Assembly: GCF_003334405.1 (NCBI RefSeq)
Contig: NZ_QOWM01000014.1
Source of the DNA: Escherichia coli
GTDB taxonomy: Bacteria > Pseudomonadota > Gammaproteobacteria > Enterobacterales > Enterobacteriaceae
DNA length: 64,000 bases
Strand: one strand, 5' to 3'
Part shown: positions 51,344 to 51,413 of the stretch, in pieces
Position numbering within the stretch: position 1 is the stretch's first letter
Layout of the letters: each line of letters starts with the position of its first letter
Program-made: the position numbers and the translations under genes
The notes under the pieces: generated by a model
The model's database searches: none
Told to the model about the DNA's origin: nothing
Seen by the model: only the letters and a program-made list of their open reading frames with translations

Positions 51344-51380
51344 AAGGCCTTCTCCAGGAGAAGGCCTTGAGTGTTTTCTC
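51344..51380 (+). terminator. rho-independent terminator of ppiC
   Basis: Perfect 12-bp stem aaggccttctcc / ggagaaggcctt with a 1-nt loop, followed by gtgttttctcc. Confidence 0.7.
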
Positions 51381-51413
51381 CCTCTCCCTGTGGGAGAGGG
51401 TCGGGGTGAGGGC
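51380..51413. repeat. GC-rich intergenic palindrome
   Basis: ccctctccc-tgtg-ggagaggg followed by tcggggtgagggc; resembles dispersed intergenic palindromic repeats, family not verified. Confidence 0.4.

Follow-up and report, generated by a model that had tools for sequence, protein, structure and literature searches.

A 3'-end hairpin and a copy of the BoxC repeat in the ppiC-ilvC spacer of Escherichia coli

The ppiC-ilvC Spacer

The window, the whole 64,000-nt stretch of Escherichia coli DNA analysed here, contains the rep-(yifN)-ppiC-ilvC-ilvY region. The genes ppiC and ilvC are convergent and leave a spacer of 86 nt. K-12 strains are 100% identical to the window over 361 nt crossing this spacer, and MG1655 coordinates are obtained as 4,010,871 minus the window position. 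Read in the ppiC sense, the spacer runs TAG-CAAGGCCTTCTC-CAG-GAGAAGGCCTTG-AGTGTTTTCT-CCCTCTCCC-TGT-GGGAGAGGG-TC-GGGGTGAGGG-C-ATCAGCGCGCAC, that is, a hairpin beside the ppiC stop codon (hairpin 1) and then a copy of the BoxC repeat (Table 1). The 3' UTR of ilvC is the same 86 nt, made up of the C-rich BoxC complement and hairpin 1.

The NC_000913.3 annotation has zero features between ilvC and ppiC, and BoxC is unmarked there. The spacer appears to hold no described RNA family, because an Rfam scan of 50700-51700 at permissive thresholds returned only chance-level matches, all far under gathering scores. Two small open reading frames, 51317-51442 (minus strand) and 51390-51734 (plus strand), were judged spurious; they cross the BoxC repeat or run antisense to ilvC.

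Table 1. Features of the ppiC-ilvC junction, in window coordinates
Feature	Position	Strand	Basis or remark
ppiC CDS, 93 aa, parvulin-type peptidyl-prolyl isomerase	51058..51339	+	Open reading frame; NC_000913.3 b3775, 3,959,532-3,959,813
Weak T-rich tail on the ilvC side of hairpin 1, CTATTAGTTG	51333..51342	-	Overlaps last ppiC codons and stop
ilvC mRNA 3' end, M63	51340 (MG1655 3,959,531(+))	-	5,802 reads (PMC7815308)
Hairpin 1, CAAGGCCTTCTC-CAG-GAGAAGGCCTTG, 12-bp stem, 3-nt loop	51343..51369	both	Fold, terminator scan, Term-seq
Full BoxC unit, 56 nt, the whole space from hairpin 1 to the ilvC stop	51370..51425	+	Segment swapped in alternative allele; shared flanks
U-tract of ppiC terminator, also BoxC 5' flank, AGTGTTTTCT	51370..51379	+	Type-B flank conservation
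ppiC mRNA 3' end, M63, "primary ppiC"	51372 (MG1655 3,959,499(-))	+	23,172 reads (PMC7815308)
BoxC core, TM_ECO no. 20 / PIT element, type B	51380..51413	+	Identical to Holder Table 1 entry 20
BoxC blocks: pyrimidine, TGT, purine, TCG, third G-rich	51380-51388, 51392-51400 and 51404-51412 (blocks)	+	
ppiC-sense 3' end, LB, OD 0.4	51404 (MG1655 3,959,467(-))	+	28,044 reads (PMC7815308)
ilvC CDS, 491 aa	51426..52901	-	Open reading frame; NC_000913.3 b3774, 3,957,970-3,959,445
ilvC stop codon	51426-51428	-	Open reading frame

The Hairpin Next to ppiC

An earlier sequence-only reading of this junction described a perfect 12-bp-stem hairpin with a T-run directly after the ppiC stop. Both are present, the stem starting one base earlier, at 51343. 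Seven of its 12 pairs are G-C, and the fold (-20.9 kcal/mol, z = -4.0) was equalled in stability by none of 200 shuffles. A consensus terminator scan marks hairpin 1 as terminator-like on the plus and minus strands. In the ppiC direction, a G+C-rich stem-loop is followed by a U-tract, the arrangement that defines an intrinsic terminator. Of the 10 nt in the tail, 6 are T on the plus strand and 5 on the minus strand, where the longest T run is 2. Hairpin 1 is single-copy in E. coli genomes, a query containing it finding a median of 1 place per genome.

A BoxC Copy Between Hairpin 1 and ilvC

The BoxC repeat is reportedly due to Bergler et al. 1992 and Bachellier et al., and the PIT element to Hoyne et al. 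2000. Holder et al. 2015 (PMC4666352) equate both with their TM_ECO, which has 23 MG1655 entries in their Table 1. The entry numbered 20, CCCTCTCCCTGTGGGAGAGGGTCGGGGTGAGGGC, is a type-B copy of 34 nt at MG1655 3,959,491-3,959,458. It is the same, letter for letter, as window 51380-51413, and in Table S2 of the same paper its distances are 14 nt to ilvC and 39 nt to ppiC. BoxC also emerged independently among the E. coli stem-loop families of Di Nocera's group, whose model yielded 22 copies; the literature values they give are 56 bp and 32 copies. All 23 MG1655 copies were re-found at their published coordinates in the fetched loci.

The palindrome itself, CCCTCTCCC-TGT-GGGAGAGGG, occupies 51380-51400 with a perfect 9-bp stem, and is followed by TC, by GGGGTGAGGG up to 51412 and by a C at 51413. 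Thus the second palindrome and G-tract noticed by the sequence-only reading are real, and the 12 nt (51414-51425) between the motif and the ilvC stop agree with its statement that ilvC ends 13 bp later. The core motif CCCTC(T/G)CCC-loop-GGG(G)AGAGGG-loop (TTA or C/T-C-G)-GGGTGAGGG matches 51380-51413 with 0 mismatches. Compared with shuffles, the fold of the second palindrome is unexceptional given how G+C-rich it is (plus strand z = -1.1, minus strand z = -2.4), and its significance comes from its status as a repeat, not from folding energy. The palindrome combined with its G-tract occurs once in the window, against a shuffle expectation of 0.00; no further copy was found in the window with up to 3 mismatches. 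Across complete E. coli genomes, blastn with a 57-nt query (51370-51426) finds matches in 4504 of 5426, with a per-genome median of 7 places and no genome exceeding 15, and on these counts the second palindrome is a dispersed repeat. The suspicion that it is boxC-like is thereby borne out by identity over 34 nt to TM_ECO no. 20, and the motif, with its 23 copies in MG1655, is not the unique sequence that would have spoken against that suspicion. Flanked by the stops of ppiC (51339) and ilvC (51426), the copy here is intergenic, as are all remaining MG1655 copies.

The limits of the unit were set by aligning BoxC copies by their edges. Type-B copies share the 5' flank consensus ggTTTTCt directly before CCCTC and a 3' flank that ends CGCAC; among those of MG1655, TTTTC[TC] before CCCTC shows at least 75% column conservation. 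Copy no. 1, between hrpB and mrcB, has the whole string TTTTCT + core + CATCAGCGCGCAC as in the window, and BoxC copies of Pseudocitrobacter have the same flanks. Judged by these letters, the adjoining 56 nt is one BoxC copy, of the length by which the unit was originally defined. Because type-B copies share the TTTTC flank, the T-run credited to the terminator appears to belong to the repeat. The T-run does lie directly after the stem, as the sequence-only reading had it, and also forms the 5' flank of BoxC.

No difference at the level of the element separates this copy from other BoxC/PIT/TM_ECO sequences, with which it shares core, type-B flanks and intergenic position. It is solitary, outside the five inverted A+B pairs, and it abuts a gene-specific terminator hairpin, so that its 5' flank doubles as a U-tract.

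Alleles, Relatives, and the Origin of the Arrangement

The site is dimorphic in E. coli. A 361-nt query reaching across both gene ends matches 5426/5426 complete genomes, many of them over a span 41 nt shorter. BoxC-plus genomes, those in which a 161-nt query with BoxC at its centre is covered to 80% or more, number 2943 of 5426 (~54%), a figure that rests on coverage of this query only, since megablast counts are confounded, flanking pieces being joined in BoxC-plus. The BoxC-minus allele, carried by UTI89, O157:H7 TT12B, strain S2 and the type strain ATCC 11775, has hairpin 1 with the loop CGG in place of CAG and then only AACTCTGAATCGCTA before the ilvC stop. These 15 nt bear no relation to the 56 nt replaced and have no T-run, the T-rich flank being absent from this allele, and the terminator scan finds only the ilvC side (minus strand) of its hairpin 1 terminator-like. 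Boundaries of the BoxC-minus allele were set by eye and from the printed sequence, as MAFFT misaligned it against the repeat; no target duplication was seen at the BoxC-plus and BoxC-minus junctions in the alleles compared. Ten independent contigs with identical PpiC split cleanly into two spacer types, each nearly uniform. The loop of the BoxC-plus allele makes a CCAGG Dcm methylation site at 51353-51357; the BoxC-minus allele has CCGGG there, and this difference is linked to BoxC state in all sequences inspected.

Other species were surveyed through 80 PpiC loci among the matches listed. In Enterobacter asburiae and Enterobacteriaceae RIT691 the same hairpin leads into A(A/G)TGTTTGC and then, in the equivalent position, a BoxC core. 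Siccibacter colletis lacks BoxC but shares the hairpin, here with a T-run of its own. The Pseudocitrobacter spacer has an inverted BoxC pair without hairpin 1, and E. albertii, one atypical "E. coli" representative and Citrobacter species (e.g. Citrobacter youngae) have another hairpin with REP/BIME-like palindromes. Loci of E. fergusonii, Shigella and Salmonella were not among the 80 listed, and an exact look-up of the PpiC protein returned E. coli-type spacers only. Because different genera carry different repeats there, the ppiC-ilvC spacer appears to be a site where intergenic repeats have landed repeatedly.

REP/BIME sequences acting as 3' stabilisers, which occupy the same spacer in E. 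albertii and Citrobacter, are the nearest comparison outside the BoxC family. Like them, BoxC is a dispersed intergenic palindrome whose RNA hairpin lies at a stable 3' end without U's. Unlike them, it belongs to another sequence family, has a third G-rich block with triplex and G-quadruplex potential, and numbers ~23 copies where REP numbers several hundred.

The G-rich block is the basis of a reading at the level of DNA, in which the G-rich strand, while being replicated or transcribed, folds into an intrastrand triplex that stalls polymerases and promotes rearrangement, BoxC being a destabilising passenger and the alleles its product. On paper 9/9 triads are compatible with the purine motif (G*G-C, A*A-T, T*A-T). 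Holder et al. (PMC4666352) demonstrated the triplex in vitro by CD and NMR with type A and type B oligonucleotides and found more sequence variability around TM_ECO than at control loci, but their in vivo DMS footprinting did not detect it. The hypothesis that would link the triplex to the presence/absence polymorphism can point to a site at which ~2943/5426 genomes are BoxC-plus and to a spacer that differs radically among related genera. On the other hand, the two near-uniform spacer types in the ten contigs look like one old event rather than ongoing instability, and the arrangement of hairpin plus BoxC is kept in Enterobacter asburiae and Enterobacteriaceae RIT691. The variability may instead reflect a permissive site, since this spacer accumulates repeats whatever their kind, REP among them. 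Taken together, these points leave the DNA-level reading unlikely, if still worth some weight. A purine triplex cannot form in RNA. The transcript can be viewed separately: GGGAGAGGGTCGGGGTGAGGG (51392-51412) has four G-runs with 2-3-nt loops, a canonical G-quadruplex motif, and since it is transcribed in the ppiC sense an RNA quadruplex could form. For DNA, Holder et al. excluded a quadruplex by NMR (PMC4666352).

A further proposal treats BoxC as a non-autonomous mobile element of small size, akin to MITEs or REPINs, whose insertion beside the ppiC hairpin would be recent and would date to the ancestor of some E. coli lineages. Its presence/absence polymorphism with sharp boundaries, its multiple, exclusively intergenic copies and its frequent inverted A+B pairs, which recall REPIN doublets, are what such an element might show. 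A plasmid search also gave BoxC-like matches in 344 records; Klebsiella, Enterobacter and Citrobacter supply most of them, and among the E. coli records several are as large as chromosomes. One 70-kb E. coli plasmid, pMTY18781-3 (NZ_AP023208.1), carries a BoxC that is 98% identical including the flanks (2501-2552 of the extracted locus), between a frameshifted lysine-N-methylase gene and a glycosyltransferase gene and beside flagellar genes. Holder et al. reported no plasmid association (PMC4666352). Several observations oppose mobility. There is no target-site duplication, and the "empty" allele has 15 unrelated nt. The same position in other genera argues for antiquity, or for transfer of the whole locus by homologous recombination. 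To our knowledge, BoxC has no transposase, RAYT partner or binding protein, which also sets it apart from REP. An association with phages was rejected, with 3 weak matches in 50,697 phage records. A recent mobile insertion is accordingly a rather improbable account of this copy.

Transcript 3' Ends at Both Palindromes

Published Term-seq data for MG1655 (Adams et al. 2021, PMC7815308; 3' ends from supplementary file 1, Rho regions from supplementary file 2) supply the check that the sequence-only reading had proposed. In M63, the end of ppiC, labelled "primary ppiC", and that of ilvC (51372 and 51340) both map to hairpin 1, each lying 3 nt past the stem on its own strand. The ppiC end supports the assignment of hairpin 1 as the ppiC terminator, and the ilvC end, on the opposite strand of the same hairpin, fits the statement that ilvC lacks a terminator of its own. 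With the ends 3 nt past the stem on each strand, hairpin 1 is a shared two-way 3'-end hairpin of ppiC and ilvC. The ppiC end was probably trimmed, since only 3 nt follow the stem.

In the classic bidirectional terminator, an A-tract and a T-tract flank the hairpin. Hairpin 1 is likewise a single hairpin between convergent genes, and on either strand the 3' end falls a few nt beyond the stem. It differs in that its ilvC tail overlaps the end of the ppiC coding sequence and is only weakly T-rich, its ppiC-side T-tract belongs to a repeat, and Rho-dependent read-through occurs in both directions. This read-through is indicated by Rho termination regions on both sides, one antisense in ilvC at 3,959,177(-) (score 3.98, p = 2e-12), ~290 nt downstream of BoxC, and one antisense in ppiC at 3,959,826(+) (score 2.8) (PMC7815308).

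The ppiC sense has another end, 4 nt past the BoxC RNA hairpin; at the threshold of Adams et al., LB passes 51404 only and M63 passes 51372 only. BoxC is thus not inert for RNA ends. A search of the Adams tables with BoxC strings showed that the "primary" 3' end of lldD, 3,781,065, lies 4 nt past BoxC no. 17. A degenerate BoxC-like copy, CCCTCTCACCCTAACCCTCTCCCCGGTGGGGCGAGGGG (MG1655 ~632,050-632,098), which is missing from Holder's 23, has an orphan Term-seq 3' end at 632,098(+). A 3' end after BoxC is not unique to ppiC-ilvC, because the lldD and 632,098 ends also adjoin BoxC, and it is not general either.

These ends could be taken to make BoxC a second intrinsic terminator in tandem, a fail-safe for ppiC, given the strength of the LB end and its lldD counterpart, but this is highly improbable: UCGGGGUGAGGG after the stem offers no U-tract, the terminator scan is silent at BoxC (the sequence-only reading too had favoured a repeat over a second terminator), PIT elements had neither terminator nor promoter activity in the earlier tests as cited by Holder et al. 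(PMC4666352), and the Rho-dependent region downstream fits trimming back to a protective hairpin.

A Model for 3'-End Formation in the Spacer

We favor the reading that the spacer consists of two unrelated neighbours, the shared hairpin 1 and a BoxC copy with local side effects, and we consider it very probable. A polymerase arriving from ppiC would transcribe hairpin 1 and then AGUGUUUUCU, so that the T-rich 5' flank of BoxC would provide the hairpin with its U-tract in this direction. A polymerase arriving from ilvC would transcribe the complementary hairpin and then CUAUUAGUUG, and the ilvC mRNA would merely carry the C-rich BoxC complement in its 3' UTR. BoxC itself would not terminate, because neither strand has a U-tract and PIT elements were inactive in the tests cited.

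Some ppiC transcripts would read through hairpin 1 and be ended by Rho inside ilvC, in antisense. The 9-bp RNA hairpin of BoxC would then stop 3'-to-5' exonucleases and leave the stable end seen in LB. In outline, Dar & Sorek 2018 describe Rho-terminated transcripts as ending just past stable stem-loops without U-tracts because exonucleases stop there. By analogy, the 51404 end is probably trimmed read-through RNA, as suggested by its location past the BoxC stem, the Rho region at 3,959,177(-), the Dar & Sorek pattern and the likeness to lldD. Alternatively, 51404 could be a genuine pause or termination site, given that Term-seq records steady-state ends and the method does not separate termination from processing.

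The model of two neighbours leaves room for more than one role of hairpin 1. The tail on the ilvC side, CUAUUAGUUG, is a poor U-tract, and hairpin 1 may be partly a protective structure rather than an efficient intrinsic terminator, because Rho-dependent read-through also occurs in the ilvC direction. The idea of a "donated" U-tract assumes that the flank travels with BoxC. The BoxC-minus allele could instead be a deletion that took out an older T-run, as the Siccibacter hairpin has its own T-run without BoxC.

A broader and doubtful extension is that type-B BoxC acts as a portable 3'-end module, the flank upgrading an adjacent hairpin and its own hairpin capping read-through RNA. If this were true, the alleles would be heritably different in how efficiently ppiC is terminated, in how much antisense transcription enters ilvC and in what the ilvC 3' UTR contains. 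The clean dimorphism of E. coli offers a natural allele pair for the effect of BoxC on 3'-end formation, at a site where a dispersed repeat would contribute the U-tract of a neighbouring terminator and mark a stable RNA 3' end.

The identity and position of this BoxC were already catalogued and the transcript ends already mapped, which makes the finding real but ordinary, and beyond correct annotation it has little importance. RefSeq records, including NC_000913, carry no BoxC feature, so the junction looks like an unexplained "twin palindrome" to a naive reader. Labelling it as BoxC no. 20 plus a shared terminator guards against reading it as a riboswitch, a small RNA or a tandem terminator.

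Upstream of ppiC

A second hairpin, GAAGCCCGGATTTTCCGGGCTTTTG, at 50936-50962, precedes the ppiC start by 96 nt. An orphan Term-seq 3' end at 3,959,909(-), window 50962, coincides with its last base and is strong in every condition searched (39,000-63,000 reads), with a Rho score of 0.55 ("No"). The hairpin has the look of a terminator for the yifN transcript, which lies upstream; alternatively, it possibly marks a short 5'-leader RNA of ppiC.

Further upstream, two overlapping open reading frames of 86 and 91 aa (50369-50859, plus strand) correspond to the K-12 yifN pseudogene. Other E. coli contigs have an intact 149-aa gene of the PemK toxin family in this position, and further ones lack yifN, with rep directly upstream of ppiC. 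This three-state polymorphism occurs in varied combinations with the BoxC alleles.
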